From a virus: a stretch of DNA of 30,848 nucleotides. The position numbers and the translations under genes are program-made. The notes under the pieces are model-generated. The model was not told where the DNA came from and searched no databases. It saw only the letters and a program-made list of their open reading frames with translations. How positions within the stretch are numbered: the first letter of the stretch is position 1; the number at the start of each line of letters is the position of its first letter. The DNA lies in the IMG/VR virus record IMGVR_UViG_3300045988_027937, positions 1 to 30,848 of that record; one strand, written 5' to 3'. Below are positions 4,135 to 30,848 of this stretch, one piece after another.

Positions 4135-4250
4135 TGGGAACTGAAATTCAAGACGGCTGTGTTGTATTCTATCAGTGGTACAAAGGTAAGTTGGTCAGCA
4201 TTCCATACGATGGTTCCGTAGCTGCTGACCCGGAAGCGTCAAAGAACTAA
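4134..4250 (+). CDS. Small hypothetical protein (38 aa)
   Basis: Its ATG overlaps the portal stop (TAATG). It encodes MGTEIQDGCVVFYQWYKGKLVSIPYDGSVAADPEASKN and fills the portal/gp7 gap. It is below the track's size cutoff. Confidence 0.35.
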   Translation: MGTEIQDGCVVFYQWYKGKLVSIPYDGSVAADPEASKN

Positions 4251-4266
4251 AAAGGAGGCGCCAGCG

Positions 4267-5196
4267 TTGGCAGATAAGGCACACAGAGAAACAGACAAGT
4301 TATTGCTTTCGCTGGAGCGCCGCATTCGGCGGATATACCGGCAGACGCAAGATGAGGTGCGGCAGGCCTGGGACGCTTATATGGCGGAAACCGAGCCAAG
4401 GCTGGCCAGCTTGCAAGAGCGGTATGAAGCCGCCAAGAAAACCGGCGACAAGGCAGAAATCAAGCGGGCTGGTCGTGAGTTGGCATTTGCCAAGCGTGAA
4501 ACGACTGTACAGAATGACCGGTTCAAGAGCATTGCGGAACAGACCGCCGAGAACTTGAGCCGGGTTAATGAAATCGCGCTTGAATACACCAACGGCAGGC
4601 TGCCGGAAGTCTACGCTTTGAATTACAATGCGATAGGGAAAGCCGCCAAGCGAGAACTGCGGGGCTTTTCCTTTTCGCTGGTAGACGCTCACACGGTTGA
4701 GAATTTGATCTTGCGAGGTGATCGCTCCCTGTTGCCGCTGCGGAAGCTGAACAAAGCCAAGGATGTCCGGTGTAATATGAAGAAAATCAATTCCGAGGTC
4801 CTTCAAGGAATTCTGCAAGGAGACAGCATTCCGAAGATTGCAAACCGCATTGCCAAGGTGCAGCAAATGAATATGCACGCAGCTGTTAGAACTGCACGGA
4901 CGGCTGTCACCGGTGCTGAAAACAAAGGGCGTATGGATATGCTCGGCGAGATGGAAGAAAAGGGCGTTGTGGTCAACAAAATGTGGATTGCTGCGCACGA
5001 CGCCAGGACGAGAGACTGGCACGCCGAACTCGATATGAAGTCCGTGCCGCAGGATAAGCCGTTCGTTAATTCTATCGGCTCTATAATGTACCCAGGTGAC
5101 CCGGCGGCAGACCCTGCGAATACATACAACTGCCGCTGTGCCCTTGGATACAAGATAGTAGGTTTCAAACCGCTTAGTGAGGTAAGCAAAAAATGA
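4267..5196 (+). CDS. Head morphogenesis / minor capsid protein (SPP1 gp7, Mu F-like)
   Basis: 309 aa, follows the portal. The C-terminal DWHAELD...PGDPAADPANTYNCRCAL segment is the signature end of the gp7/F family. TTG start after AAAGGAGG. Confidence 0.85.
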   Translation: MADKAHRETDKLLLSLERRIRRIYRQTQDEVRQAWDAYMAETEPRLASLQERYEAAKKTGDKAEIKRAGRELAFAKRETTVQNDRFKSIAEQTAENLSRVNEIALEYTNGRLPEVYALNYNAIGKAAKRELRGFSFSLVDAHTVENLILRGDRSLLPLRKLNKAKDVRCNMKKINSEVLQGILQGDSIPKIANRIAKVQQMNMHAAVRTARTAVTGAENKGRMDMLGEMEEKGVVVNKMWIAAHDARTRDWHAELDMKSVPQDKPFVNSIGSIMYPGDPAADPANTYNCRCALGYKIVGFKPLSEVSKK

Positions 5197-5531
5197 GCGA
5201 AAGCGTAACAGTAAAAGACAACACGGAAGAATTTGAAGAGGCACTACAAAATGCTATCGAGCGCGGGCTTGAAGCTATCGGAGCGTCGGCGGAGACGCAC
5301 GCAAAGACGAATGTGCGGGACTTTCCACGAGTTGACACCGGGCGACTTATGAACAGCATTTCACACGCCACCACTAACAAAGCGGCGTATATTGGCACAA
5401 ATGTTGAATATGCGCTGTATGTAGAGGAGGGCACCCGAAAAATGGCGGCTGCCCATTATTTACGAAATGCCGCGACTCAAAATACTGCGGAGTACAAGCA
5501 ACTGCTTGAGGACAGCCTGCGAAACGCTTAA
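5193..5531 (+). CDS. HK97 gp10-family protein
   Basis: 112 aa. RVDTGRLMNSISH...AAYIGTNVEYALYVEEGT matches the gp10-family core (vDTG.L..Si ... Ya..vE.G). Confidence 0.65.
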   Translation: MSESVTVKDNTEEFEEALQNAIERGLEAIGASAETHAKTNVRDFPRVDTGRLMNSISHATTNKAAYIGTNVEYALYVEEGTRKMAAAHYLRNAATQNTAEYKQLLEDSLRNA

Positions 5532-5553
5532 TCATTAACTTTTTGTATAATCG

Positions 5554-5582
5554 TTGACAAAAAATTCTGCTTGCTGTATAAT
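5554..5582 (+). promoter_or_regulatory. Consensus sigma-A promoter TTGACA-17-TATAAT upstream of the scaffold/capsid genes
   Basis: TTGACA at 5554-5559, 17-nt spacer, TATAAT at 5577-5582, located in the 166-bp gap 5532-5697. Confidence 0.7.
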
Positions 5583-5697
5583 TAAGGCAAGAACAAAAAT
5601 CTAACGGCAAAGAAAAGCCGCCGAGGAAAAGGAGACAAGGTTCTTTTGGCATTGGCGGTCATTGCTACGAAAAAGAACGGAGGAATGACTTATCGCA

Positions 5698-6303
5698 TTG
5701 ACAAGAAAAATGCTCAAAGCAATGGGCATTGGCGAGGAACAGATTGACCAAATCATTGAAGCCCACGCCGACACGGTGGACGCACTGAAAGAGGAGCGGG
5801 ACACCTTGAAAGGCAAGGCGCAGGAATTGGCGAGCGTCCAAAAGGAATTGGACGAAACGAAAAAGCAGCTTGAAGCAGCCGGGGATAACGATGGCTACAA
5901 GAAGCATTATGATGACCTTAAGCAAGAGTTTGACGAATTCAAACAGGCCGCAAGCGTTAAGGAAGCACACACGGCAAAGGCGACGGCTTACCGTAAATTA
6001 TTACAGGCCGCAGGAGTTTCCGATAAACGAGTTGACAGCGTGTTGAAGGTGTCGGACATCGACAGTATCGAACTTGACGCAAAAGGCCAAATCAAGGGCG
6101 CTGACAAGCTGACGGAAGCCGTCAAAACTGAATGGGCTGACTTCATCGTGTCCGAGGGGCAGAGAGGTGCGAACACTTCAACGCCGCCCGGGAACACGCA
6201 GAATAAGACCGTTTTTTCCGCTGATGATATGAAGAAAATGTCTGCCGCAGAAATCAATGCCAATTGGGAGAATATCAAACAGTCGTTGAAATCGACAAAC
6301 TAA
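5698..6303 (+). CDS. Scaffolding protein
   Basis: 201 aa, highly charged and coiled-coil (E/K/D/Q-rich), directly upstream of the major capsid gene. The start is uncertain (TTG 5698 or ATG 5710). Confidence 0.75.
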   Translation: MTRKMLKAMGIGEEQIDQIIEAHADTVDALKEERDTLKGKAQELASVQKELDETKKQLEAAGDNDGYKKHYDDLKQEFDEFKQAASVKEAHTAKATAYRKLLQAAGVSDKRVDSVLKVSDIDSIELDAKGQIKGADKLTEAVKTEWADFIVSEGQRGANTSTPPGNTQNKTVFSADDMKKMSAAEINANWENIKQSLKSTN

Positions 6304-7226: not shown

Positions 7227-7658
7227 GTGACTATGCTGACAGAAATTTGTGCAAAGTTGCACAACTACTTCTTGGTTCCGAATGGAATTCACAAGGGGGA
7301 GTTCAAAATTGAAGGCGGCAAAATCACGCCGCTGGACTTTTTGCAGGAAGGTCAATACTTCCGCATCGTGGGGAGCGTCTTTAATGATGGCGTTCATAGG
7401 TATGCCGAGGCTGACTCGGATTTGACCGACGAGGCTTTCAGCGGGGCGATATGGGCACTGGCGATACCTCCTAAACTGGTGGACTTATCAAGGGAAATCA
7501 AGGCGTTTTGCGAGAGCGAGGCGGGCAAGCCCGGCGCATTTGTGAGCGAAAGTTTCGGCGGATATTCTTATAACCGAGGAACGGACACAAACGGTGCTGC
7601 GCTTGACTGGCCTGCTGTCTTTCGTTCACGCTTAAACGAATGGAGGAAACTGCAATGA
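7227..7658 (+). CDS. Head-tail connector/neck protein (putative)
   Basis: 143 aa. Named from its position after the capsid gene, with translational coupling to the next gene. Confidence 0.45.
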   Translation: MTMLTEICAKLHNYFLVPNGIHKGEFKIEGGKITPLDFLQEGQYFRIVGSVFNDGVHRYAEADSDLTDEAFSGAIWALAIPPKLVDLSREIKAFCESEAGKPGAFVSESFGGYSYNRGTDTNGAALDWPAVFRSRLNEWRKLQ

Positions 7659-8011
7659 GCCTTTTGGCACAAGCAATGACAGAGTGCGTCTTTGTACGGA
7701 AAATCGACAAGCCGGACGGCGAGGGCGGATATACCACCAGCTGGGTGGATGGTGCACCGTTTAAGGCGGCAATCACTTTTGACAGTTCGATGGAAGCACG
7801 CACGGCGGAAAAAGCAGGAGTTACAAGTCTGTACACCGTTACCGTTCCAATCGGCACACGGATTGAATATTACGATGTGTTCAAGCGGCTGTCGGACGGC
7901 AAAGTGTTCCGTGTGACTTCCGACGGCGACGACAAGATGACGCCAAAATCCGCCAGCTTCCAAGTGTTCCAAGTGACGGCTGAGGAGTTCACGCCCAGCG
8001 TTGGCGGGTAA
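7640..8011 (+). CDS. Head-closure / head-tail adaptor protein (SPP1 gp16-like, putative)
   Basis: 123 aa. Named from its position and the GGYTTSWVDGAPFKAAI segment typical of head-closure proteins. Confidence 0.5.
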   Translation: MEETAMSLLAQAMTECVFVRKIDKPDGEGGYTTSWVDGAPFKAAITFDSSMEARTAEKAGVTSLYTVTVPIGTRIEYYDVFKRLSDGKVFRVTSDGDDKMTPKSASFQVFQVTAEEFTPSVGG

Positions 8012-8034
8012 AATAAGCCGTCAGCGGGCGAGAA

Positions 8035-8230
8035 TGTAGCATTGTAGGCGCCGTTGTAGTGGCAGTTTGTAGTATGCCAAAAATGGCGCCGTTGAGCCAA
8101 AAACAAGGTACTTTATATACTCTCTCTACAAACTCTACAAAGTTTTAGAGAGTAATATAAAGAGGGGCATATATATTGAAATATATTAAATACAGAACCT
8201 TGTTTTGTTGTAGCTTTTGTAGTTTTGTAG
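8035..8230. repeat. Iteron module A: 4x TGTAG, dyad, 2x CTACAAA, AT-rich core, 3x TTTTGTAG
   Basis: TGTAG starts at 8035, 8043, 8055 and 8068. The dyad AATGGC-N8-GCCAAA lies at 8082-8101. CTACA starts at 8126 and 8135. The AT-rich core spans 8140-8208. Further TGTAG copies start at 8209, 8218 and 8226. It lies in a 246-bp non-coding gap and is colinear with 29771-29960. Confidence 0.85.
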
Positions 8231-8257
8231 TAAAGTCCAAAGGGGAGGGCAAAGCAA

Positions 8258-8641
8258 ATGGCGCAGACCAAAGCGGCAGCGATACAAGCGTTTTTTGAGC
8301 GCTTCCTGCCAGCGTATGAGGAGACGACGGTGCCGCAGGGCGCAGCACTGCCGTATTTGACGTACGCGCTTGTGACAGACAGCTTTCACGCTGATGGAAG
8401 CGGCGATACCAGCATTTCCGTTTCGTTGTGGTACAGGGGAACGACTTGGAAGCCGTGCAATGCGATGGCCGACAAGATGAGCGAGACACTTGGCTTTGAC
8501 GGATTAGTCATTCCCGCTGCTGATGGCTATATATGGCTAAAGCGCGGCACGCCGTTTGCGCAGAATATGTCCGACCCGGACGACGACCAAATCCGGCGGA
8601 AGATAATCAATGTCACCGCCGAATATCTAACAAAAAATTAA
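8258..8641 (+). CDS. Neck/tail-completion protein (putative)
   Basis: 127 aa, RBS AAAGGGGAGGG, positioned just before the major tail protein. Confidence 0.4.
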   Translation: MAQTKAAAIQAFFERFLPAYEETTVPQGAALPYLTYALVTDSFHADGSGDTSISVSLWYRGTTWKPCNAMADKMSETLGFDGLVIPAADGYIWLKRGTPFAQNMSDPDDDQIRRKIINVTAEYLTKN

Positions 8642-8656
8642 GAAAGGATTTATGAA

Positions 8657-9259
8657 ATGGGTAAATTTGCAGTTATTCCCAAAAGCACTTTTGACGACCT
8701 GCAACTTGACGCGGGCGTCTTGCTTAAGAAATTTACACCCGGCACCACGACTGAACCGGCGGACGAGGATATTATTTGCGCCACCACTGGTGGTATCAAC
8801 GCGACTTGCGTGCCGACTTATTCCGACTTCGGCGAGGATGTGGACAACTGCCCGAACGGTATGAAAGAGTTGAAGCACCTCGACAGCTGGGAATGCAAGC
8901 TGGCGTTTACCGCTTTGGGTACAAGCCCGAAAGCAATCCGGCTCTCGCTTGGTTCTGCCGATGTTGACAAGGTTGACACAACGAAGATCACGCCCCGGGC
9001 GGACATCGCGCAGGCGGACTTTTCCGATCTTTGGTGGGTTGGTGACAAAGCAGACGGCGGCTTGGTCGCTATTCAGCTTAAGAACGCATTGTCCACCGGC
9101 GGCTTCTCATTGCAGACCGCAAAGAACGGCAAGGGGCAGATTTCCGTAGAGCTGACCGGCCATGTGTCTATCACTGACCAAAAGACCGTGCCGATGGTGT
9201 TTTATTCCACCGGTGCAAGCAAGGCTGCGCAGAGCAAGGCCGCTGCGGTCAACAAATAA
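8657..9259 (+). CDS. Major tail protein
   Basis: 200 aa, positioned immediately upstream of the chaperone pair and tape measure. Confidence 0.65.
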   Translation: MGKFAVIPKSTFDDLQLDAGVLLKKFTPGTTTEPADEDIICATTGGINATCVPTYSDFGEDVDNCPNGMKELKHLDSWECKLAFTALGTSPKAIRLSLGSADVDKVDTTKITPRADIAQADFSDLWWVGDKADGGLVAIQLKNALSTGGFSLQTAKNGKGQISVELTGHVSITDQKTVPMVFYSTGASKAAQSKAAAVNK

Positions 9260-9286
9260 GAATTTTTGTTTAGGAGGTAAACAAAT

Positions 9287-9658
9287 ATGAAAATTTCCGA
9301 ACTAACGACAGAGCGGGCAGCGGATGTCCTTTGCGAGGTAAGCATTTACGCGCTGAATATCTTGGGCGATAAAGAACTGCTTGCTTCTCTGCGTATGCAG
9401 CTTGAGGGCACGGACGGCGACAGTACCAAAGCGGAGTTGATCGCCGTTGCAAGCGAAAAAATTGCCGAACTTGTCCCGCTGCTGCTAAAAAAGCACAAAG
9501 ACGATGTGTTCGGCATTGTCGCAGCTGTGAATGGGCTGACGCTCGAGCAGGTGCGGCAGCAGAAAATCATCAAGACAATGACCGCTATTAAAGAGATGGC
9601 ACAAGACAAAGACTTGATTGATTTTTTCAAATCCTGCGTGTCCACGGAAAAAGCGTAA
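9287..9658 (+). CDS. Tail assembly chaperone (G-like)
   Basis: 123 aa, acidic, positioned before the tape measure. It contains a slippery heptamer near its 3' end. Confidence 0.75.
   Translation: MKISELTTERAADVLCEVSIYALNILGDKELLASLRMQLEGTDGDSTKAELIAVASEKIAELVPLLLKKHKDDVFGIVAAVNGLTLEQVRQQKIIKTMTAIKEMAQDKDLIDFFKSCVSTEKA
9622..9628 (+). promoter_or_regulatory. -1 programmed ribosomal frameshift slippery heptamer T_TTT_TTC
   Basis: The zero-frame codons are GAT TTT TTC AAA. The -1 frame has its last stop (TGA 9619-9621) immediately before the heptamer and stays open to 9945. Confidence 0.75.
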
Positions 9659-9945
9659 CAAGGGCGTTAATTGACGCCCCTAAACTGACAGTACAAGGGC
9701 TGGTTCTCGCTCTGCCGTTACTTATTGAGCGGCAGTCCGAAGAACTGGCCTTTCGTGTTTATTTGACGAATTGCGCAAAAATTTTGACCGAAAACACGGC
9801 CAAGTCGGCTGGCGGTTCTTATTTGACTAAATCGTATTTGGACATCATCAACCCGCCGCCGCCGGAGACACGCACACCTGAGCAGGTAAAACAACAAATT
9901 CTCGGCAAGTTGAAAGACACGGCCGAAGAAAGGAATAACGACTGA
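9622..9945 (+). CDS. T extension of the tail assembly chaperone (G-T fusion made by a -1 frameshift from 9287..9628)
   Basis: The -1 frame is open over 9622-9945 and ends in TGATG overlapping the tape-measure start. The track shows only its distal part (9763..9945). Confidence 0.7.
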   Translation, partial: FFQILRVHGKSVTRALIDAPKLTVQGLVLALPLLIERQSEELAFRVYLTNCAKILTENTAKSAGGSYLTKSYLDIINPPPPETRTPEQVKQQILGKLKDTAEERNND

Positions 9946-12240: not shown

Positions 12241-13915
12241 GAACAAATATGGTTTTTTCAAGTATTTAGACTTCTCCGCAAGCGCCGCCAATGGGGCAAC
12301 ATTCGATATTGTCCGAATTGCTCTGCAAAAAGGGTTTGACACTTCCAGCGGTATCGTTTCAAAGGTGTTCAGCGGAACAGGCGATCAAGATTTTAGGTCG
12401 TTTGAGCCGCAGGGGTTCAATTTGAATGAAAAAGTAGCGCTGTTTGGTCAATCCGGAATTGCGCAAGGCGTCATAACGGCTTACAGAAGCGACAGTAATG
12501 GGCTTTTCGTCGATGGCGAGTCAAACTTTCCGTTTAAGATAGAAATATCGCTTAAAGGCTATTATTCAATGTCTGGGATCACTATAAAATCACGGAATGT
12601 GATTAAATCGCTGAAAATAGAGGCGTTCAGGGACAACGCTTCGGTGGCTTTGGGGCAGTTTATTGGCAGCGAAAAAGGAGAATTCTTCCCGCTTGTGATA
12701 GATAATGCGAATAGCATTACGTTGACTGTCGAACAGGCGGAGCCGCTGTCGTTCATCGGCATTTGGGGTATTCAGTTTGGCACCGCTCGAGAATTTGGCG
12801 ACGAAAGCATTATATCCGCGTCGTTGTCGAAGCTGTATTCGCTGACGGCAAAGTCGTTGGAATACGATACGCTTGACTTGACGGTGCTTGACCCGCAGCG
12901 TGGTGATTATCTCGTGCAGAACAAGCAGGCGATTGACTTCTGCGTTGGAGACAAGCCGATTGAACGCTTCTATGCAAATCAAGGGGCGGAAAACGGGGAC
13001 AACACGACGACGATACAGGCGTACAATGTTGTGTCCGTGTTTGAAGCGCAGACGCTTGGTGGTTTCTTCGGAGCCGACGCAAGTAGAGTTATTGAGTTGA
13101 TTATAAAGCCTATCGGATATAATGTTCTCGGAATGGATATAGCCAACGCTCCGACTATTGACGGCTATTTGCCGATCTGCACTATAAGAGAAGCGCTGCA
13201 ATACATTGCGATTGGTTCCGGTTTGCGGTTCAGCAGCCAAGACGGGATTGACAACAACCGTTGCTTACTTGCAGAGCCTGTTCCGACAGTGCCGGAGGAG
13301 ACGGCAGTAGAGTACACGGAGGCAAACATTGTAGGAACGCCAAAATACGACAAGACAGACTTGGTCAAATCCGTCACGCTGAAGCTGCACAAGCTGTCGC
13401 AAGTCAAAGATACCGAGGAGTTGTACCACTGGTACATCGCCAAGAATAAAAAGGTAAAAATCACATTTAGCAGCCCGCACGCAAACTTAAAGGCGTATGA
13501 GGTGACTGGACACAATGCGGACGGTGACGACCTGGTCGCAGAAACTCCGAGCAAAAATGTAACTTTTGAAAAAAAAGAAGCAAATTATTGCGTCGTGGTT
13601 AATAAGTCGAGCAACAAGATTGTTATTATCGGAAACAAATACGAAGATACAACGGTTGAGTATGTTTCAAAAAGCGCTGAGTTGGCGGACAACGACGAGG
13701 CAAGCGAGGTCAGCTATGAAACTTACATTTGCACGGATGACCCGCAGGCAATCTGCGACGAATTGCTGGAGCAGAACAACCGGCGCACGAAAATAACATT
13801 CAGCACCCTTGACCGGCCTAAGATCGGAAAAGCGTACAACATTTTGGGCAAGGTGATGGTGATTACAAAAGTCACGGACACGCTGACGGGCGTATATGAA
13901 GTGGAGGCGATATAA
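12233..13915 (+). CDS. Tail tip / tail-associated (Tal-like) structural protein
   Basis: 560 aa. Named only because it is the second gene after the tape measure. Confidence 0.5.
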   Translation: MSKNKYGFFKYLDFSASAANGATFDIVRIALQKGFDTSSGIVSKVFSGTGDQDFRSFEPQGFNLNEKVALFGQSGIAQGVITAYRSDSNGLFVDGESNFPFKIEISLKGYYSMSGITIKSRNVIKSLKIEAFRDNASVALGQFIGSEKGEFFPLVIDNANSITLTVEQAEPLSFIGIWGIQFGTAREFGDESIISASLSKLYSLTAKSLEYDTLDLTVLDPQRGDYLVQNKQAIDFCVGDKPIERFYANQGAENGDNTTTIQAYNVVSVFEAQTLGGFFGADASRVIELIIKPIGYNVLGMDIANAPTIDGYLPICTIREALQYIAIGSGLRFSSQDGIDNNRCLLAEPVPTVPEETAVEYTEANIVGTPKYDKTDLVKSVTLKLHKLSQVKDTEELYHWYIAKNKKVKITFSSPHANLKAYEVTGHNADGDDLVAETPSKNVTFEKKEANYCVVVNKSSNKIVIIGNKYEDTTVEYVSKSAELADNDEASEVSYETYICTDDPQAICDELLEQNNRRTKITFSTLDRPKIGKAYNILGKVMVITKVTDTLTGVYEVEAI

Positions 13916-19287: not shown

Positions 19288-19316
19288 TTGACAAGACCGC
19301 CGCAATCGGCTATAAT
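19288..19316 (+). promoter_or_regulatory. Perfect consensus sigma-A promoter TTGACA-17-TATAAT with no ORF behind it
   Basis: TTGACA at 19288-19293, 17-nt spacer, TATAAT at 19311-19316. Confidence 0.7.
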
Positions 19317-19500: not shown

Positions 19501-19640
19501 ATGCCAAGAAAGCCACCGCTGGGACACTTGCCGTGGATCACTGACAGATGTGCGGGTGGCATAATCGCCTTTATTTTACGATGAGATTTTGGAAAAGTCA
19601 AAAAATATAGAAAAAGTATTGAAAAAGTATAAAAAAAGTA

Positions 19641-19669
19641 TTGACTTTTGCCGCCGAATGTGGTATTAT
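19641..19669 (+). promoter_or_regulatory. Early promoter TTGACT-17-TATTAT (TGn extended -10) with phased A-tract repeats upstream
   Basis: TTGACT at 19641-19646 and TATTAT at 19664-19669, preceded by TGG. Three AAAAAGTAT repeats lie at 19611-19641. It shares 21 nt (ATAAAAAAAGTATTGACTTTT) with the promoter at 24159. Confidence 0.7.
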
Positions 19670-21749: not shown

Positions 21750-21780
21750 GGGCAGAGCGAAAGGCTCCGCCCTTTTTTTT
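21750..21780 (+). terminator. Intrinsic terminator (probably bidirectional) between the convergent genes
   Basis: GGGCAGAGC/GCTCCGCCC stem with one mismatch, followed by T8 (21773-21780). On the minus strand the same hairpin is followed by TGTTTCTT. Confidence 0.65.
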
Positions 21781-22339
21781 AGGCTGTCACAACGCCATAA
21801 TTCAGAGAATATCTTGCGAGCAATCCGTCTTGCTCTGCGCAGATCGCAGCAAGGTCATAATCCAGGCACTCTAAGTTTATGCGCTGTCTTTCGACGCGTT
21901 CCAACTCGCAGTCTACCGACTGAACAAGTTTCTTGACTTCACAAGACGCGGCAACTTCGCCAAGTTCGTGCAAGTCTGCGTATGCCTGTTCGTAAAGCTT
22001 CTTGGTTTCGGTTTCCCAAGAGTGCCAGCGTAGAAATGCGTCGCGAACGGCTTTGCGTTTGGTTCCTGCGTCCACTTGCTGGCGGGTATATCCGCGCCAA
22101 GCGTCTGGAATGATCTCCGGGTCTTTGGCGGTCACTTCCGGCAGCAGATGATTGAAGCGCGAGACGAAATACAGGGCAGTTTTTTGATGTTCAAAAAACT
22201 CGGACATCGCCTGGCATTCTTGCTGTCGCTGATAGCCGCAAAGGTTCAAGAATCCGAAATATTCAGCCAGCTGGCTGTGCAGCATTATTCCCTCGATTTG
22301 GTGGGCATTTATGCGCCCAAAAATTTCACTTGCAGTCAT
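21779..22339 (-). CDS. Ferritin-like four-helix-bundle protein (tentative); last gene of the minus-strand operon
   Basis: 186 aa, all-helical. INAHQIEGIMLHSQLAEYFGFLNLCGY...MSEFFEHQK and RWHSWETETKKLYEQAY resemble ferritin/Dps helices A-C, but the metal-ligand spacing is not canonical. Confidence 0.35.
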   Translation of the reverse strand: MTASEIFGRINAHQIEGIMLHSQLAEYFGFLNLCGYQRQQECQAMSEFFEHQKTALYFVSRFNHLLPEVTAKDPEIIPDAWRGYTRQQVDAGTKRKAVRDAFLRWHSWETETKKLYEQAYADLHELGEVAASCEVKKLVQSVDCELERVERQRINLECLDYDLAAICAEQDGLLARYSLNYGVVTA

Positions 22340-22351
22340 AGGCGGCCGCCT

Positions 22352-22753
22352 TTACAGTTTTTCTACCGTCACGGACAGGTTGTTGACAACGGCAGTAGAA
22401 CCGCCAAGCACAAAGGACAGAATGGAACTGTCACATCCGCAGGCATTGCGGAGAATGGCGCTCACTGTCAGCGTAACGGTTTCGTTTACAGCGGCTGTGG
22501 TGGCGCTTGAAGTTGCGCCGATCACGGAGACGCCGTCCTTTTGGGCTGTCAAAGAAACAGTGCCAGCAGCAGGAGGCGTAACGGTGGCCACGGCGGTCAC
22601 CTTGTAATAGCCGCTTCCGCAAAGCGTGATTGTGTTGCCGTCCTGCCGGATGTTACAGCCAAAGCGGCGTGAGGTCACTCCAACAGGAATAACGCTGCCG
22701 GCCGTGATTGTGGGTTCGGTGGTATTTGTTACATAAATTGCAGATTTTGACAT
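22352..22753 (-). CDS. BclA-C-terminal-domain / C1q-TNF-like jelly-roll protein (stand-alone, no collagen repeats)
   Basis: 133 aa. The pattern AGSVIPVGVTSRRFGCNIRQDGNTITLCGSGYYKVTAVATVTP..GTVSLTAQKDGVSVIGATSSATTAAVNETVTLTVSAIL...LSVTVEKL is typical of this fold. RBS GAAAGGAAAAA. Confidence 0.45.
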   Translation of the reverse strand: MSKSAIYVTNTTEPTITAGSVIPVGVTSRRFGCNIRQDGNTITLCGSGYYKVTAVATVTPPAAGTVSLTAQKDGVSVIGATSSATTAAVNETVTLTVSAILRNACGCDSSILSFVLGGSTAVVNNLSVTVEKL

Positions 22754-22781
22754 TTTAGTTTTTTCCTTTCGTAAAAGATTA

Positions 22782-22807
22782 GCGGGAGCAGCTTTTGCCG
22801 CCCCCGC
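22782..22807 (-). terminator. Strand-specific hairpin (partial terminator/attenuator) inside the minus-strand operon
   Basis: The minus-strand RNA GCGGGGGCGGC-AAAA-GCUGCUCCCGC forms an 11-bp stem with two G-U pairs, then UAAUCUUUU. On the plus-strand RNA the same positions are A-C mismatches. Confidence 0.4.
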
Positions 22808-22840
22808 CGGGTTAAATCCTCGCCGTGGTGGCGTGTGTTG

Positions 22841-23416
22841 TTAAATGTTGCAGCAGCTGTTACAGCCGCAGAACGGAGACGGGCCCGCATTGTACGCGTA
22901 GCTTGTCGGATAGCGCACGACGCCGCAAAAACGGCTGTCCATTTCAAGGCTTGTCACCTTGTCACGCAGCGCCTGGATCTCGTTCGTCTGAATCAGCTGC
23001 CGGGTGGCTTCGCCCTCTGCGTGAATCGCCGTTGTGATGTCGCAAGCGTTCTGATTCATCTGTGCAGACAGGTTGGCCGTCGCAAGCTGGTTCTTGCAGC
23101 AGCAGTCTGCCAGCTGGCCTTGGATTGCTCGACCCTCGGTCAAAATGCTGTTGTTCAGCGCGAAAGTGCTGTCGCAAATGCCGTTGCCGATAGTGTTCAG
23201 CCGGTCGTTCAGCTGGCCGAATTGCTGGCCGAACAGGATCTCCTGCTGGCTGGCAGCGGTTGCGTACTGGCCGAATTCGCCCTGTCGGTTCCAGCCGTTG
23301 CCGTTGAAGCCCCAAAACAGGAAGAGCAGGATCACCCACCAAGCACCGTTGCCGCCAAATGCGCCATTGTCGTCACCTACGGCTGCCCGCAGGTCGGAAA
23401 GTGAATAGTTATCCAT
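22841..23416 (-). CDS. Cys-rich single-pass membrane protein with a Gly-rich/hydrophobic YjcZ-like N-terminus
   Basis: 191 aa. It contains GAFGGNGAWWVILLFLFWGFNGNG, internal degenerate repeats each containing Cys (GICD, DCCCKN, NACDITTAI), and a C-terminal FCGCNSCCNI. RBS GAAAGGAAAA. Confidence 0.55.
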   Translation of the reverse strand: MDNYSLSDLRAAVGDDNGAFGGNGAWWVILLFLFWGFNGNGWNRQGEFGQYATAASQQEILFGQQFGQLNDRLNTIGNGICDSTFALNNSILTEGRAIQGQLADCCCKNQLATANLSAQMNQNACDITTAIHAEGEATRQLIQTNEIQALRDKVTSLEMDSRFCGVVRYPTSYAYNAGPSPFCGCNSCCNI

Positions 23417-23466
23417 TTTTTTGTTTTCCTTTCGTTAGATTTTTATAAAATGGGCTGTGCACCGCC

Positions 23467-23703
23467 TCATTTTAACATTGATTGGATTTGCTCCGCTTGG
23501 GCTTTCAACTGTTGAAATTGCTGTTGACTCATCTGCCCGGTGTTGAGCAAATTCTGTACAATCGCCTGCGGGTCTTTCCCACCAAGGGCTTTGCGGAATT
23601 CAGCAAGCTGCTGCAAGAAATTCCCGCCGTTATTTGCCGGCAGGTTCTGCGGCTGCTGCCCGCTGTTTGGTTTTCGCATTGCGTCCAGAATCGGGTTGCG
23701 CAT
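23467..23703 (-). CDS. Small Q-rich protein (78 aa)
   Basis: Strong SD GGAGGAG lies 7 nt upstream of the ATG at 23703. The start sits 74 nt inside the upstream ORF. Confidence 0.55.
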   Translation of the reverse strand: MRNPILDAMRKPNSGQQPQNLPANNGGNFLQQLAEFRKALGGKDPQAIVQNLLNTGQMSQQQFQQLKAQAEQIQSMLK

Positions 23704-24037
23704 TGATGATCTCCTCCAGTCTTGCTATGCGCTGTTCAAGGTCTGCGTTTGTCGGCTGTTGCGTCTGTTCGTGCGGTGTGATGTTGAATGCCGACACAGT
23801 CTTGTAACCTGCGCCGTCTGTCTTTACAAGCCACACAAGCGGCTGGCTTTCGTCCAGCAGTAATGCGCTGCTGTTCGGTGCCAGCGGGTAGGCCTGCGCT
23901 CCGTTCTCTCCGTTGACAGTGACCACATCACAACGCTGTTGCATTGCTTGATTTTGCTGCATTGCCGCAAGTCTGTCAGCGTATGGATTTCCGTAGGGCT
24001 GCACGCCCTGCATATATCCGTTGAATGTGTTATACAT
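23630..24037 (-). CDS. Hypothetical protein with a Q/N/Y/G-rich N-terminus, beta-rich core and C-terminal coiled coil; first gene of the minus-strand operon
   Basis: 135 aa. RBS GGAGGG lies 8 nt upstream of the ATG at 24037. Confidence 0.6.
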   Translation of the reverse strand: MYNTFNGYMQGVQPYGNPYADRLAAMQQNQAMQQRCDVVTVNGENGAQAYPLAPNSSALLLDESQPLVWLVKTDGAGYKTVSAFNITPHEQTQQPTNADLEQRIARLEEIINAQPDSGRNAKTKQRAAAAEPAGK

Positions 24038-24158
24038 TGACTGTTCCCTCCGTTTCTATCTCTATTTTAGAATTTTACAGTTTGTATTTCCACGAGCATA
24101 TCACGCAAGATTTATACCGATTGTATAAAAGAAATATAAGAAAGATATAAAAAAAGTA

Positions 24159-24187
24159 TTGACTTTTCCGCTTTTTGGGTGTAATAT
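24159..24187 (+). promoter_or_regulatory. Promoter TTGACT-17-TAATAT for the replication/recombination operon
   Basis: TTGACT at 24159-24164 and TAATAT at 24182-24187. The upstream 21 nt are identical to the promoter at 19641. Confidence 0.7.
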
Positions 24188-24234
24188 AGTAAATGTCAAA
24201 GGGAGAGTAACTTCCAGACGAAAGGAGAATATAT

Positions 24235-24495
24235 ATGAAAGAAATTAGACGAATTTCCGGCGCAAAAGTAAGACAGGCTTGCATTGAACACGATTGGTTC
24301 ACTTGCGGAGATATTGACGCATACAATGCTCTTTTTGAATTCGTAGGTGACATTAATCGTGAGGGCAAAAATGTTAGCAAGGCTCGACTTGAGTGCATTG
24401 CTGAAATGATAAAAGATAATAGCGAAACGGATTATAACATTCCAGAGATTATGTTCGTACTGAACGCAGAATGTTGCACCACTTATTTTGAATGA
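24235..24495 (+). CDS. Hypothetical protein (86 aa)
   Basis: RBS AAAGGAG lies upstream of the ATG. Confidence 0.6.
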   Translation: MKEIRRISGAKVRQACIEHDWFTCGDIDAYNALFEFVGDINREGKNVSKARLECIAEMIKDNSETDYNIPEIMFVLNAECCTTYFE

Positions 24496-24515
24496 CTAAA
24501 AAGGAGGAAGACAAA

Positions 24516-24809
24516 ATGGCACTAAAAGAACACCGGATTTTAATGATTGATCTTCTGAAAAAAGAAATAGCCGCCAACAGCTGGCTGACGGCTTGCAGCG
24601 ACGAGGAAGTGGATGGCATTTGCCAAATGGCTGTGCGGTTCAACCGCGATGGGTTCGACACTGACGCGCTTGTGTGTATATCGATGGCAATACAAGGCTT
24701 CAGCTACACGGAGGACAGCCGGGTGGAGATCGCCGACAAGCTGGTAAACAAATGCTGCCGTGTGCTGCTGGTCAATGACGGCGACGGCAGCCGCTGGGAC
24801 GGGAGATAA
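24516..24809 (+). CDS. Hypothetical protein (97 aa), a possible distant paralogue of 24235..24495
   Basis: ATG at 24516 after AAAGGAGGAAG. Confidence 0.6.
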   Translation: MALKEHRILMIDLLKKEIAANSWLTACSDEEVDGICQMAVRFNRDGFDTDALVCISMAIQGFSYTEDSRVEIADKLVNKCCRVLLVNDGDGSRWDGR

Positions 24810-26862: not shown

Positions 26863-27380
26863 TGCGGCAGGCTGAAATTGAGGCGGTGCTGGACACAATG
26901 CAAATCGTTGTTGACACGAGAGAACACCGAACAGCGGAGGCCGTCAAGAGATGGGAAGCCTTTGGCGTTCCGTATCGTCAAGATAAGCTGGACTTCGGCG
27001 ACTACGGGGCGGAATTTGACCTACCTGGATTTGGCAAATGGATTTGCCCAGCTGTGGTGGAGCGCAAAATGTCATTGACAGAAATTTGCGGTAATTTCTT
27101 TCAGCACCGAGATCGGTTCGTTCGTGAGTTTGAGCGAGCAATGGCGGCAGGCTTCAAAGTCTATCTGCTGATCGAGGGCGAAAGCTGGGAGGCTGCATAC
27201 GCTGGGCGTTACCGATCAAAGGTTCTGCCGCAGTGCCTGGTGGCAAGCCTAACGGCTTGGATGGCTCGGTATAACTGTGTCGTTCTTTTTTGCACCGCCA
27301 GGACGGCGCCGAAGTTGATTAAAGAGGTGCTATATCGTGAAGCAAAAGAAAGGCTTGCACAGTATGGATACAAAAATTGA
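26862..27380 (+). CDS. ERCC4/XPF-Mus81-type nuclease (putative Holliday-junction resolvase)
   Basis: 172 aa with VVDTRE, then GDYG, then VVERKMSLTE (a GDY...ERK signature). Confidence 0.6.
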   Translation: MRQAEIEAVLDTMQIVVDTREHRTAEAVKRWEAFGVPYRQDKLDFGDYGAEFDLPGFGKWICPAVVERKMSLTEICGNFFQHRDRFVREFERAMAAGFKVYLLIEGESWEAAYAGRYRSKVLPQCLVASLTAWMARYNCVVLFCTARTAPKLIKEVLYREAKERLAQYGYKN

Positions 27381-27424
27381 AAGGTGAAAGGAAAATAACA
27401 CAAGAATTGTCAAAACAAAAGGAG

Positions 27425-27517
27425 GTGGTCAAGATCGACACTCCGGAGTTGGTACTGGTGGAAAAACTGGCAGACACCGAACGCGGAAATGGCGGATTTG
27501 GGAGCACAGGGAGGTGA
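27425..27517 (+). pseudogene. Relic of a dUTPase C-terminus (motif V only)
   Basis: It translates to VVKIDTPELVLVEKLADTERGNGGFGSTGR*. RGxxGFGSTG is the terminal motif V of trimeric dUTPases. No motifs I-IV are present upstream (frame open only from 27341, no ATG). Confidence 0.6.
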
Positions 27518-27524
27518 AAGATGA

Positions 27525-27737
27525 ATGAAAAAGCGTATAAAGCTGCGGGCGATGACAGAAAGCGAGTTTTGCAGAACTCAAGAATGCGAAACTTGTCCGG
27601 AATTTCTTCCAACATTAGGCAACCAGTTTAAGACAAGATGTATGTCGAGCATTAAAAAGATGTTGTCCGGAGAATATGGCGATAAGCCGTACCGCAACAG
27701 TGACGGCAAGTATATTTTGGTGCAAGCAGATGATTGA
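27525..27737 (+). CDS. Hypothetical protein (70 aa)
   Basis: GGGAGGTG lies 8 nt upstream of the ATG at 27525. Confidence 0.5.
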   Translation: MKKRIKLRAMTESEFCRTQECETCPEFLPTLGNQFKTRCMSSIKKMLSGEYGDKPYRNSDGKYILVQADD

Positions 27738-28290
27738 TTATGCAACAGAAATCAAGGAACGGCTAAACACGGCGGAGGTGCTGGAAGCATACGGAATTCA
27801 CATTGACAGGAAAGGGCGGGCTGTCTGCCCTTTCCACAACGACAACACGCCGTCAATGCAGGTCTATTCCGGAAGCAATGGCTACCACTGCTTTGCGTGC
27901 GGAGAGAACGGAGACATTTTGACATTCGTACAAAAATATTTTGGAATTTCTTTCTTGAAAGCGTGCGAGAAGTTGAACACGGACTTTTCGCTTGGCTTGC
28001 CGATTGGACAGCGAATTTCTGTCAGAGAACAGCGGAAGATGGAGCGGGCAACCAGGGAACGCAAAGAAAAGCGCAAGGCAGAAAAGGCAATGCAGGAGCG
28101 GTTGGAGCGTGACTACTGGGCAGCGTTCGACGAGTGGGCAAGACTGGACTGCCAGCTGCGCAAATACCGACCACAGGCCGCCACAGAGCCGTTAAACCCA
28201 CTTTTTGTTGAAGCGCTACAACGGATAGGCTTGGCAGATGAAAGGCTCACACAGGCCGATTTAAGGAGGCGAGGAAGTGCTTACAGATGA
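27730..28290 (+). CDS. CHC2 zinc-finger (DnaG-primase-type) protein
   Basis: ATG at 27730. The sequence CPFHNDNTPSMQVY...YHCFACGENGDILTFV is the CHC2 finger. Confidence 0.85.
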   Translation: MIDYATEIKERLNTAEVLEAYGIHIDRKGRAVCPFHNDNTPSMQVYSGSNGYHCFACGENGDILTFVQKYFGISFLKACEKLNTDFSLGLPIGQRISVREQRKMERATRERKEKRKAEKAMQERLERDYWAAFDEWARLDCQLRKYRPQAATEPLNPLFVEALQRIGLADERLTQADLRRRGSAYR

Positions 28291-29743
28291 ACAGATACAA
28301 GTAATTGCAACGCCGGAGCAACTGCTTAACACCGACCTGCTGCTGGACTTATGTGAGGAGCGGCCGGAGGATCAAGCAAGGCTGGCGGCGCTGATGGCTA
28401 TTAAGGCAAAGGAATTCGGCATACAACAGGAATTCAAGAGCGTACTCAAAGCGTTTAACAAGGCCAACGAGAGCCTTGCCAAAGAATACAAGCGGACAAA
28501 TGCAAAGCTGCGCTGCGGTGTTGACTTGGATTTTGATGCAAACGGCCGGCCGGTGGTGTCGATAGACAACTTTGTAAAGGTACTCGAGGGCGACCCACGG
28601 TTCTCCGGTATAAAGTTTAACTTGCTTACATACAGCCCGGAGAAAACCGTCAATGGAGTGGCTGAACGGTGGACGGACGCTGACGACGCAGAAATGCGGC
28701 GGTATATTGAGAAGAAGTACGGCTTCCACAGCGTACAGAAAAGCGAGGACGCTATGCGTATTGTGCTGGCTCATCACGAATACCACCCAGTGCGTGAGAT
28801 TGTGGACGGATTGGAATGGGACGGCGTTTCGCGGATTTCCTACTTCTTAGCAAAGTGGACGAAATGCGAAGACACACCGTACACCCGAGAAGTCAGCCGC
28901 CTTATCTTTGCCGGCGGTATCCACAGGCTATACAATCCAGGTTGCAAATTCGACGATATGCCGGTGCTTATCGGCACAAAGCAGGGCGAGGGCAAGTCAA
29001 CGCTGATCCGCTGGCTTGCTTTGGCGGACGAATATTTCACGGAGGTCAACGAGTTTGATGGTCAGCGCGGCATTGAATCCATCGAGGGTGCGTGGATTTG
29101 TGAGGTTTCGGAACTGCTTGCAATGACACGCACCAAGGAGCAAGAGGCCGTCAAGTCCTATCTTACCCGGCTAAATGATCGCTACCGAATGCCATTTGAC
29201 AAGCGAGTGACCGACCACCCACGGCAGTGCATTTTTATAGGCACGACCAACAAAGAGCAGTTTTTGACCGACAAGACAGGCAACCGGCGGTTCTATCCGG
29301 TGCGGGTGAAGCAAAGCGGATATGAGTTGTTTGACAATGAAAAGCAAATCAAAGCCGACATCCGACAGTGCTGGGCAGAAGCGCTTGAACTGTACAAGGC
29401 CGGCAAGTTGCTGCCGTATGCAGACCGGTCGCTGATTGACGACATCCGCAAGGAGCAGGCAGAAGCAACGGAAGATGATTTCCGTGTCGGTATGATTGAG
29501 GACTATTTGGAAAACAAAACCGAGATTTGCGTGCTTGAACTTTGGCAGGAGGCTTTGCGGATGGGCGAATATTCCAAGCCTACCAAAAAGGAAAGCCAAG
29601 AGATCGGGCTCATACTCCAATCAATGAGCGGGTGGGTCAAGCAGCCTTATCCGAAGAAGTTTCCGGTGTATGGAAACCAGCGCTGGTGGGCGAACGAGGA
29701 TAATTCCGACCAAATCGACCTTGACGACATCCTTGAAATTTAG
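28277..29743 (+). CDS. VirE-family primase/helicase-like P-loop protein
   Basis: 488 aa. Walker A GTKQGEGKST and the FIGTTNKEQFLTDKTGNRRFYPVRV signature. GTG start after AAGGAGG. Confidence 0.85.
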   Translation: MLTDEQIQVIATPEQLLNTDLLLDLCEERPEDQARLAALMAIKAKEFGIQQEFKSVLKAFNKANESLAKEYKRTNAKLRCGVDLDFDANGRPVVSIDNFVKVLEGDPRFSGIKFNLLTYSPEKTVNGVAERWTDADDAEMRRYIEKKYGFHSVQKSEDAMRIVLAHHEYHPVREIVDGLEWDGVSRISYFLAKWTKCEDTPYTREVSRLIFAGGIHRLYNPGCKFDDMPVLIGTKQGEGKSTLIRWLALADEYFTEVNEFDGQRGIESIEGAWICEVSELLAMTRTKEQEAVKSYLTRLNDRYRMPFDKRVTDHPRQCIFIGTTNKEQFLTDKTGNRRFYPVRVKQSGYELFDNEKQIKADIRQCWAEALELYKAGKLLPYADRSLIDDIRKEQAEATEDDFRVGMIEDYLENKTEICVLELWQEALRMGEYSKPTKKESQEIGLILQSMSGWVKQPYPKKFPVYGNQRWWANEDNSDQIDLDDILEI

Positions 29744-29770
29744 CCGAAAATCCTCCGCTTTCGTGGTGTT

Positions 29771-30032
29771 TGTAGCGTTGTAGTAGACTTTGTAGTCAGA
29801 CTTTGTAGTGCAAAAATTTGGCGCAACAAAGCCAAAAAAACCACATTCTCTATATAAACACTACAAACACTACATTATTTGAGAGAATAATATAAAATAA
29901 GGAAAAAAGTAAAAATAGAAATATATTTATAGCAGACACCGTAGTTTTTGTAGTTTGTAGCGGCTCGAAAGTCTAAAATTTGGCGTGGTTGAGCCAAAAA
30001 TGGGTCGCTACAAACTCACTACTACATTGTAG
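29771..30032. repeat. Iteron module B (extended copy of module A)
   Basis: TGTAG starts at 29771, 29779, 29791 and 29804. TTTGGC-N8-GCCAAA lies at 29817-29836. CTACA starts at 29861 and 29870. The AT-rich core spans 29875-29939. (C/T)GTAG copies start at 29940, 29949 and 29956. A second dyad lies at 29979-29998, followed by CTACAAAC at 30008 and the palindrome CTACATTGTAG at 30022-30032. Confidence 0.85.
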
Positions 30033-30058
30033 GTTGCTTTGCAGAAAGGGACGAGATA

Positions 30059-30388
30059 ATGGACAAGAGTTTAGAAAAATCTGCCGCTGACGGCAAAATC
30101 TTACCAAAAGGGCTGACAGCAGCGGACAGCGCCGAGTATATCGGCCTGTTGGCTATATATCGGCTGTTCCGTGCTGGGCTGATGGACAAGGAAACCGCCA
30201 AACGGCAGAAAGGAGCATTGCGGTACAACTGCACCAAGCTGCGGTCGGAGGCAGAGTTTTTGAGCCGTGAAGCGCTGGCGCTGGATGAACGAATCACCGC
30301 CGCAACGGAAGCGTACACCGATGACAAGAACCTGGACACAGCGGAGGAGTTATATCGCGCGTTTTACCATTTGCCGCCAAAGCGTTGA
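30059..30388 (+). CDS. Hypothetical helical protein (109 aa), first gene after module B
   Basis: RBS GAAAGGGA lies upstream of the ATG at 30059. Confidence 0.55.
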   Translation: MDKSLEKSAADGKILPKGLTAADSAEYIGLLAIYRLFRAGLMDKETAKRQKGALRYNCTKLRSEAEFLSREALALDERITAATEAYTDDKNLDTAEELYRAFYHLPPKR

Positions 30389-30435
30389 TTTTTGGCGGCT
30401 TTTCTGCTACAATTAGATTTAGGAGGTGCATTTGA

Positions 30436-30848
30436 ATGAAAGTTGAAATGCGAGCGCTGGACAGTATCAAACCGTATGAGAAAAACGCGAAAAAGCACGA
30501 TCAAACCCAAATTGACAATGTAGCCGAGAGCATTCGGCAGTATGGATTTGTGCAGCCGATTGTGGTTGATCGTGACGGAGTAATCGTGATCGGTCATTGT
30601 CGAGCACTTGGAGCGAAAAAACTCGGATTGAAAGAGGTGCCGTGCGTCTGCGTTGATGACTTGACGGAAGAGCAAGTGAACGCATTGCGTATCGTCGACA
30701 ACAAGACAAATGAGAGCGATTGGGATTTTGATTTGCTCGAGCAAGAGTTGCCGGAAGTCGATTTGAGCGATTTTTGCTTTCAATTTGATTTTTTGCATAA
30801 ATGTGATGATAATTTTATATCCGACGAAATTGCCCACCCAAAAAAAAC
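30436..30848 (+). CDS. ParB/Srx-like nuclease domain; 5' part of a ParB-domain/DNA-methyltransferase fusion gene that continues at base 2 after removing the 99-bp overlap
   Basis: ATG at 30436 lies 10 nt after AGGAGG (30421-30426). The translation MKVEMRALDSIKPYEKNAKKHDQTQIDNVAESIRQYGFVQPIVVDRDGVIVIGHCRALGAKKLG fits the ParB-like N-terminal pattern. There is no stop before the window end, and the frame is continuous with 14..937 (30436 maps to -313, same phase as 14). Confidence 0.85.
   Translation, partial: MKVEMRALDSIKPYEKNAKKHDQTQIDNVAESIRQYGFVQPIVVDRDGVIVIGHCRALGAKKLGLKEVPCVCVDDLTEEQVNALRIVDNKTNESDWDFDLLEQELPEVDLSDFCFQFDFLHKCDDNFISDEIAHPKK
30750..30848. repeat. 99-bp terminal direct repeat, copy 2
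   Basis: Identical to bases 1-99. Confidence 0.95.

Follow-up and report, generated by a model that had tools for sequence, protein, structure and literature searches.

The window analysed here is the whole 30,848-nt stretch of the IMG/VR virus record IMGVR_UViG_3300045988_027937, and our subject is a pair of non-coding repeat modules within it: module B, which fills the gap directly behind the replication gene rep, and module A, which lies among the virion genes. The window represents a phage genome of ~30,749 bp assembled as a circle, in which bases 1–99 recur exactly as 30750–30848, and this 99-bp terminal direct repeat shows that the assembly is circular (or terminally redundant). Nearly all genes are carried on the + strand; the sole leftward gene block, to which no functions were assigned, occupies 21779–24398 (− strand). 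The virion and lysis genes encode a terminase, an SPP1-type portal, a head-completion protein, a head/tail-terminator-like protein, a holin and a lysin-like peptidase, and the replication genes encode a VapE-type Rep, a DnaG zinc-ribbon protein, an AAA_24 ATPase, a protein resembling single-stranded-DNA-binding proteins and an ERCC4 nuclease. No integrase, repressor or other lysogeny gene was recognised by Pfam and PHROGs over the whole genome. The phage that carries the modules is tailed and complete, at ~30.7 kb, and comes from a gut community. The full window was also scanned with Rfam and for tRNAs without any hit, and neither module is a known RNA.

The features at the rep locus are the following.

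27676..28290, + strand: gene in the "pri" position, directly upstream of rep and overlapping it; 204-aa protein with a DnaG-type CHC2 zinc ribbon
28277..29743, + strand: rep; VapE-like superfamily 3 (SF3) helicase-initiator of 488 aa, with a predicted C-terminal winged helix at about residues 402–473
29744..30058, + strand: module B, the predicted primary replication origin, which is the entire 315-bp intergenic gap after rep
29770..29808, + strand: outer-left iteron array of B, four TTGTAG at 29770, 29778, 29790 and 29803 (motif search)
29817..29836, no strand: dyad 1 of B, a perfect TTTGGC-N8-GCCAAA, part of the motif TGGCG-N3-4-(A/T)(A/G)AGCCAAAAA
29861..29874, − strand: inner-left iterons of B, CTACAA at 29861 and CTACA at 29870, which are TGTAG on the − strand, facing away from the AT-rich centre
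29875..29940, no strand: AT-rich centre of B, a predicted DNA-unwinding element, 78–82% A+T in 40-bp windows
29941..29960, + strand: inner-right iterons of B, (C)GTAG at 29941 and TTGTAG at 29948 and 29955 (sequence and motif search)
29979..30032, no strand: right-hand extension of B, comprising dyad 2 (TTTGGC-N8-GCCAAA, 29979–29998), CTACAA at 30008 and CTACA-T-TGTAG at 30022–30032

A preliminary description made from the letters of the window had singled out the 315-bp gap after a VirE-like (VapE-like) gene, which corresponds to 29744–30058, and the elements that it listed there, TGTAG at 29771/29779/29791/29804, TTTGGC-N8-GCCAAA, CTACA at 29861/29870, a second dyad and a palindrome at 30022–30032, were all confirmed. 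The right-hand GTAG repeats that it reported are also present, but at 29941/29950/29957 rather than at 29940/29949/29956. In all, module B holds 11 TGTAG pentamers in the order ++++ −− ++ −− +, nine of which are exact TTGTAG hexamers. The window contains 33 copies of the hexamer, whereas shuffled sequences give 11.0 ± 3.4 (0 of 100 shuffles reached 33), and 17 of the 33 copies sit in just two gaps, 8 in module A and 9 in module B. With a background of 16 TTGTAG in the ~30 kb outside the modules, ~0.17 copies would be expected in 315 bp, whereas nine were observed (Poisson P ~2e-13). The clustering of TTGTAG in the modules is therefore real and far beyond chance. The AT-rich centre of B stands out from a genome with a G+C content of 49.8%, and is nearly invariant among close relatives of the phage. 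Directly after module B lies an open reading frame (ORF) of 109 aa (30059–30388) without any family match; it ends in a strong terminator at 30373–30399, which overlaps an extended −10 promoter (30385–30413) before the ParB-methyltransferase gene.

Module A interrupts the virion genes and has these parts.

8012..8257, + strand: module A (246 bp), the second origin-like copy, between the head-completion gene (7640–8011) and a late gene (8258–8641)
8034..8072, + strand: outer-left array of A, ATGTAG at 8034 and TTGTAG at 8042, 8054 and 8067 (motif search)
8126..8140, − strand: inner-left iterons of A, CTACAA at 8126 and 8135 (motif search)
8141..8207, no strand: AT-rich centre of A, up to 82% A+T
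8208..8230, + strand: inner-right iterons of A, TTGTAG at 8208, 8217 and 8225 (motif search)

Modules A and B align with 74% column identity over ~230 shared columns and have in common the box pattern ++++ −− [AT-rich] +++, with the left-array boxes spaced by 8/12/13 nt in both, although the longest exact word that they share is only 13 nt and the right-hand extension of B is missing from A. The preliminary description had called B an extended second copy that repeats A element by element, and the alignment, together with the same box order, orientation and spacing, bears this out. Its account of the arc from 30059 round to 8011 on the circular map is likewise accurate: this arc contains the hypothetical ORF, the ParB-methyltransferase, terminase and SPP1-type portal genes, the head genes and the head-completion gene. 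The identical boxes in identical order and spacing suggest that the same initiator would bind both modules.

We then consider the protein encoded immediately upstream of module B. Rep matches the Pfam VapE-like_dom with E = 7e-64, and the sole match that phmmer found for it among PDB sequences is 7PDS (E = 8e-47), the Rep1–DNA complex of the Staphylococcus aureus pathogenicity island (SaPI) SaPI1 (PMC9371898). With an AlphaFold (AF2) model of Rep, built with 37 homologues (mean confidence score pLDDT, the predicted local distance difference test, 80), Foldseek returned 7pds as the best PDB match as well (E = 1e-27 over ~458 columns, near full length), and residues 402–473 of the model follow the helix-strand-helix-helix-strand-strand order of a winged helix. 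Over its full length, Rep is homologous to the self-loading SF3 helicase-initiator SaPI1 Rep. The product of the overlapping gene upstream, in the "pri" position, matches Pfam Zn_ribbon_DnaG (E = 9e-21), NCBIfam dnaG over residues 23–143 only, and the DnaG zinc-binding domains 1d0q and 2au3 in PDB.

GenBank phages gave no match to 25 kb of the window, nor to module B alone, and all relatives used below were drawn from IMG/VR and from collections of metagenome-assembled genomes (MAGs). IMG/VR contains ~18 close relatives plus many distant ones, and more than 4,000 Rep homologues were found at E<=1e-20. In the close relatives (in L043–L069 and L123–L138), the Rep and capsid proteins are 97–99% identical to those of the window, while DNA identity is ~90% genome-wide; this difference implies a long divergence under strong purifying selection, which makes the set useful for footprinting non-coding elements. 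The best match in the genome collections is a 34-kb contig, the size of a whole phage, with 97% Rep identity in a MAG labelled "Bacteroidaceae" (L203, CAVKXW010000018.1). Relatives at 65–70% (L204–L208) come from MAGs of Acutalibacteraceae, Ruminococcus and other Clostridia, and the Bacteroidaceae placement of the best match looks like a binning artefact.

The boxes of both modules are almost invariant in this set. Among 13 distinct variants of module B from the close relatives, 2 of 55 columns vary in the boxes, compared with 71 of 264 elsewhere (p=6e-5), and among 18 distinct variants of module A the corresponding figures are 1 of 45 and 84 of 207 (p=4e-8). The outer-left boxes of B are the same in all 13 variants and the spacers between them vary. 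For the bin 29801–30000 in B, identity to the close relatives reaches 95.4%, above that of the flanking coding DNA (~90% genome-wide); module A is ~91% identical, equal to its flanking coding DNA, and its AT-rich core varies more than that of B. Judged from these alignments, the conservation of the boxes is best read as the footprint of a putative protein-binding element under selection.

We next turn to the wider family, in which the boxes accompany rep. At least 6 boxes occur within 1 kb after rep in 17 of the 18 Rep relatives with at least 64% identity, the 18th having 4, and box clusters behind rep are common in Rep relatives from 70% down to ~32% identity. The boxes are lineage-specific (TTGTAG, GTTACA, TGTAAA, GTCAAC, TGTTAA, AGTAAC and GATACA), and they follow rep across the family, whichever gene lies downstream. 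The right-hand extension of B is also found in a second TTGTAG lineage, whose Rep is 68% identical to that of the window. One contig with Rep at 53–55% identity (L196, positions 4773–4786 and 12985–13270) is arranged differently: there rep is followed directly by the homologue of the ORF 30059–30388, and an origin-like module (GTTACA / AT-rich / TGTAAC) is found at a distance of 8.2 kb, so the origin does not always adjoin rep. A search of viral contigs with the pattern CTACAAACNCTACAA returned at least 120 loci, mostly unrelated, and was not used because it was too unspecific.

Module A has a far narrower distribution. Every close relative carries it, and so do 6 of 6 contigs from the TTGTAG lineage with 68% Rep identity, the capsid gene of which is barely related to that of the window (22% identity), and it is missing in 12 of 12 other relatives of the head-completion gene. 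It is also missing in L059, L061-66, L070 and the GTTACA-type L149, in which the two late genes adjoin each other. In relatives with 50–81% capsid identity, the head-completion gene is followed by the homologue of 8258–8641 within 9–36 bp, and this junction measures 0–36 bp in the relatives without the TTGTAG system. Since the junction is tightly coupled in these relatives, A is an insertion, and it is seen only in the two TTGTAG-type lineages, that is, only alongside a TTGTAG-type Rep and origin. On this distribution, module A is best described as an old insertion that was kept at one site. The head-gene region of the lineage with 68% Rep identity contains, in addition, a separate cluster of 6–7 copies of GCAACA, at the following distances from the end of rep.

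L141: +9631..9820
L157: +9106..9295
L163: +8109..8298

We consider it likely that module B serves as origin to a pri-rep-ori replicon of the SaPI type and that module A is a second copy of its core, most likely a second Rep-binding site. The assignment of B rests on the Rep homology, the SaPI ori layout and the box clusters after rep across the family. In SaPIs, the ori lies immediately 3' of rep and has 6–12 penta- or hexanucleotide iterons around a roughly central AT-rich region; on each side of it stand two or more iterons, in opposite orientations, the primase gene lies upstream of rep, and the iterons are read by a winged helix in the C-terminal domain of Rep (PMC9371898). Module B begins 1 nt after the end of rep (29743), with its first iteron at 29770, and its 11 TGTAG are within the SaPI range. 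To the left of its centre stand two CTACA and to the right, opposed to them, (C)GTAG and two TTGTAG, and A has the same core. Both systems have homologous self-loading SF3 Reps with a C-terminal winged helix (predicted here) and a primase-related gene ahead of rep, with the difference that only a DnaG zinc ribbon was detected in the present protein. The preliminary description had favoured an origin on account of the neighbouring replication genes, and that suggestion is well supported by the SaPI1 Rep homologue upstream, the SaPI-like layout and the box clusters in relatives.

In the mechanism that we propose, Rep would be a self-loading SF3 helicase that doubles as the initiator. Its C-terminal winged helix would read the 5–6-nt TGTAG/TTGTAG iterons, and Rep hexamers would assemble on the opposed iterons flanking the ~65-bp AT-rich centre, melt this centre and load onto it, after which the zinc-ribbon primase-like protein encoded upstream of rep may aid priming. 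An ancestor of the TTGTAG-type lineages would have acquired module A in its late operon, where it has been retained since. By analogy with oriR of phage SPP1, A is most likely a second functional, origin-like Rep-binding site. It could be a second site of initiation; alternatively, Rep bound there might stall forks arriving from B and thereby aid the switch from theta to sigma (concatemer) replication, as proposed for SPP1 oriR.

Several points weigh against this interpretation. What the analysis shows is the homology of Rep and the anatomy, conservation and distribution of the modules; that Rep binds and melts them, that the origin fires and that A has a role is inferred. GC skew and its cumulative form stay positive all round the genome without a turning point, and thus give no origin signal. 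No catalytic (TOPRIM) primase domain was detected in the 204-aa protein in the "pri" position. No SaPI-type replicon is known to have a second origin, and the intergenic gap at the early/late boundary could also hold unrecognised regulatory sites. The GGCG...AGCCAAAAA motif described below lies outside the iteron system, overlaps the dyads and has no explanation in the SaPI model. Finally, the reading of the boxes by the C-terminal domain of Rep, suggested by the SaPI parallel, draws on a covariation with box type that is only suggestive. The Rep of the window is 81% identical to that of the second TTGTAG lineage in the ATPase core and 59–60% identical in the last 88 residues, compared with 89% and 43–52%, respectively, for the GTTACA lineages, and the string "QPYPK" in the predicted wing is common to the TTGTAG lineages only; a pairwise comparison of the C-terminal domain with the boxes at matched core identity, however, revealed no general trend.

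Of the other explanations, control of transcription fares best, although we consider it unlikely. An activator or repressor on the TGTAG boxes could set up separate late units, with the packaging/head genes read from B and the tail genes from A; sites that establish separate late units had been raised in the preliminary description. Both modules do lie directly upstream of long + strand late blocks, B at the early/late boundary, and TATAAT-like strings occur in the AT-rich cores. The inner boxes of one lineage give marginal 9/12 matches (TCTACA-18-TAAAAT) on both strands, which arise because CTACA resembles TTGACA, and A contains a single weak match, TTGAGC-18-TATACT. However, a consensus scan found no promoter in B, and the match in A is not conserved: the −35 element is TTAAGC in 8 of the 18 variants, the −10 region varies, and no counterpart was found in the corresponding module (A') of the second lineage, nor on the + strand of the GTTACA-type contig L149. 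A conserved sigma-70-type promoter and a + strand terminator are lacking in both A and B, and separate late units are not supported. Strong promoters are found elsewhere (TTGACA-17-TATAAT at 19288, others at 19641 and 24159), a terminator and an extended −10 promoter come downstream of B (30373–30413), and Pfam finds no sigma factor or late activator. Moreover, the head and tail genes form one tightly coupled operon in relatives, and the boxes track rep across the family regardless of the downstream gene.

An A-rich repeat (family D1) at 19595–19669 and 24124–24187, ending in AAAAAGTATTGACTTTT, coincides with strong sigma-70-like promoters (TTGACT-17-TATTAT at 19641 and TTGACT-17-TAATAT at 24159), in addition to the perfect TTGACA-17-TATAAT at 19288. 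These three are probably early promoters, possibly with a shared operator.

It is also improbable, somewhat more so than transcriptional control, that B is the origin and A the decaying relic of an accidental duplication. Such a relic could account for the lack of B's right-hand extension in A and for the more variable AT-rich core of A, and one module suffices in most Rep lineages. The near invariance of the A boxes given above argues otherwise, as do the occurrence of A at the same site in two lineages that differ so widely in Rep (68% identity) and capsid (22%) and an identity of A to the close relatives that matches flanking coding DNA.

The preliminary description had further pointed out that the two direct copies bracket the packaging/head module, and had considered them as boundaries for module exchange. 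The bracketing holds geometrically, but the arrangement is better understood as one origin plus a copy inserted in the late operon. That the copies serve as linkers for swapping the packaging/head module between phages is very unlikely in our view. Direct repeats do flank one functional module, and the capsid gene was replaced between the two TTGTAG lineages with both flanking modules retained. However, similarity breakpoints in the 18 close relatives fall at 0–1000, 2250–2500, 4000–4500, 5250–5750, 10250, 24000–24750 and 27250–27750, none of them at A or B, and the nearest mosaic spot is the ParB-methyltransferase gene, at least ~400 bp downstream of B. Exact identity between A and B extends over at most 13 nt, selection acts on short boxes rather than on long identical tracts, and recombination of A with B within one genome would remove essential genes. 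The ParB-methyltransferase gene itself spans the join of the circular map (30436 -> 937) and is a mosaic hot spot (30436–30749 plus 1–1000), where ~28% of the close relatives align as opposed to ~94% in neighbouring bins; other replaced patches are 24201–24800 and 27401–27600.

Least credible of all are pac- or cos-like packaging signals, with the small terminase subunit on the repeated boxes: B lies ~1.6 kb upstream of the terminase genes and terminase recognition sites often bear repeats, but the element is duplicated, with one copy between head and tail genes; in relatives with other packaging modules the boxes track rep, and the layout of iterons, AT-rich centre and inverted iterons is that of an origin.

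Some conserved elements of the modules fall outside the SaPI comparison. A 25-nt motif, AAAWWTGGCG-N3-4-(A/T)(A/G)AGCCAAAAA (family D5), occurs once in A and twice in B at the following sites.

8084-8103: 25-nt motif in A
29814-29838: 25-nt motif in B, left copy
29976-30000: 25-nt motif in B, right copy

This motif is strongly conserved in the close relatives and partially in the lineage with 68% Rep identity, and it is absent from the GTTACA and TGTAAA lineages. The dyad that the preliminary description had emphasised is not kept in more distant relatives, and as the left arm of the motif varies in A, the dyad symmetry may be incidental. The SaPI model is also silent on what the outer four-box array and the right-hand extension of B are for. 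Three other readings of these elements were rejected. For a sigma-54 promoter at TGGCG...GCC, the GG-to-GC spacing is, by eye, one base below the consensus. For a small ORF in the AT-rich core behind the Shine–Dalgarno-like AGGAG/GAGGGG, no start or frame is kept across A, B and the second lineage. For the dyad as a terminator, the + strand has no T-tail, and the match on the − strand has no − strand gene to end.

An origin at B is expected biology, and the conserved duplicate alongside a self-loading helicase is a modest twist. The assignment lets origins be annotated, as a testable prediction, throughout a large uncultured family of gut phages, with the simple rule that an iteron cluster follows a VapE-type rep, and it suggests that the pri-rep-ori replicon of staphylococcal satellites is also used by complete phages. 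In addition, the combination of lineage-specific boxes and closely related Reps could help to map how the winged helix reads iterons.

Compared with SaPIs, for example SaPI1 with its Rep1 and SaPIbov1 with its ori, the present phage has its own virion genes and is not a helper-dependent chromosomal island, so that the replicon type alone is shared; the iteron sequence is different, and the outer arrays, the GGCG...AGCCAAAAA motif and the second ori-like copy are additional. In the satellite phage P4, the alpha protein, a primase, helicase and initiator, binds short iterons at ori and crr, which are several kb apart; both regions are needed for one origin, and alpha is a single fused polypeptide, unlike the proteins here. 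At the origins of iteron plasmids and phage lambda, a replicon-specific initiator binds arrays of short direct repeats that adjoin an AT-rich unwinding element. Their initiators (Rep, pi and TrfA of the plasmids, O of lambda) are not helicases and recruit the host DnaB, and their iterons are usually 17–22 bp, again unlike those described here.

The arrangement most similar to that of modules A and B is found in SPP1, where oriL lies within gene 38 among the replication genes and the oriR segment interrupts the order of the virion genes (PMC6316719, PMC3485210). Both SPP1 origins consist of repeats plus an AT-rich unwinding element and are bound by gp38, and fork stalling at gp38-bound oriR has been proposed to trigger the theta-to-sigma switch that leads to concatemer synthesis (PMC6316719, PMC3485210). 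The present phage likewise has two elements made of repeats and an AT-rich centre, one at the replication genes and one interrupting the virion genes, and their distance on the circular map, ~9 kb, compares with ~13 kb between oriL and oriR. The differences lie in the machinery and in the setting. SPP1 uses gp38 with the DnaB-type helicase gp40 and its loader gp39, whereas here there is a single SF3 Rep, and no match to a DnaB, a loader or a gp38-like protein was found among the proteins of the window; oriL lies inside gene 38 and B is intergenic, and no sequence similarity is implied. The comparison is one of analogy, not of membership, as the initiators are unrelated. The second copy offers a natural system in which to ask whether two initiator-binding sites are a recurrent route to a switch in replication mode, which in SPP1 is proposed and not settled. 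More tentatively, an origin core kept in the late operon might be a programmed start site or fork barrier that couples the mode of replication, or the dosage and expression of late genes, to Rep levels, in which case the SPP1 arrangement would have arisen a second time, independently, around an unrelated initiator.

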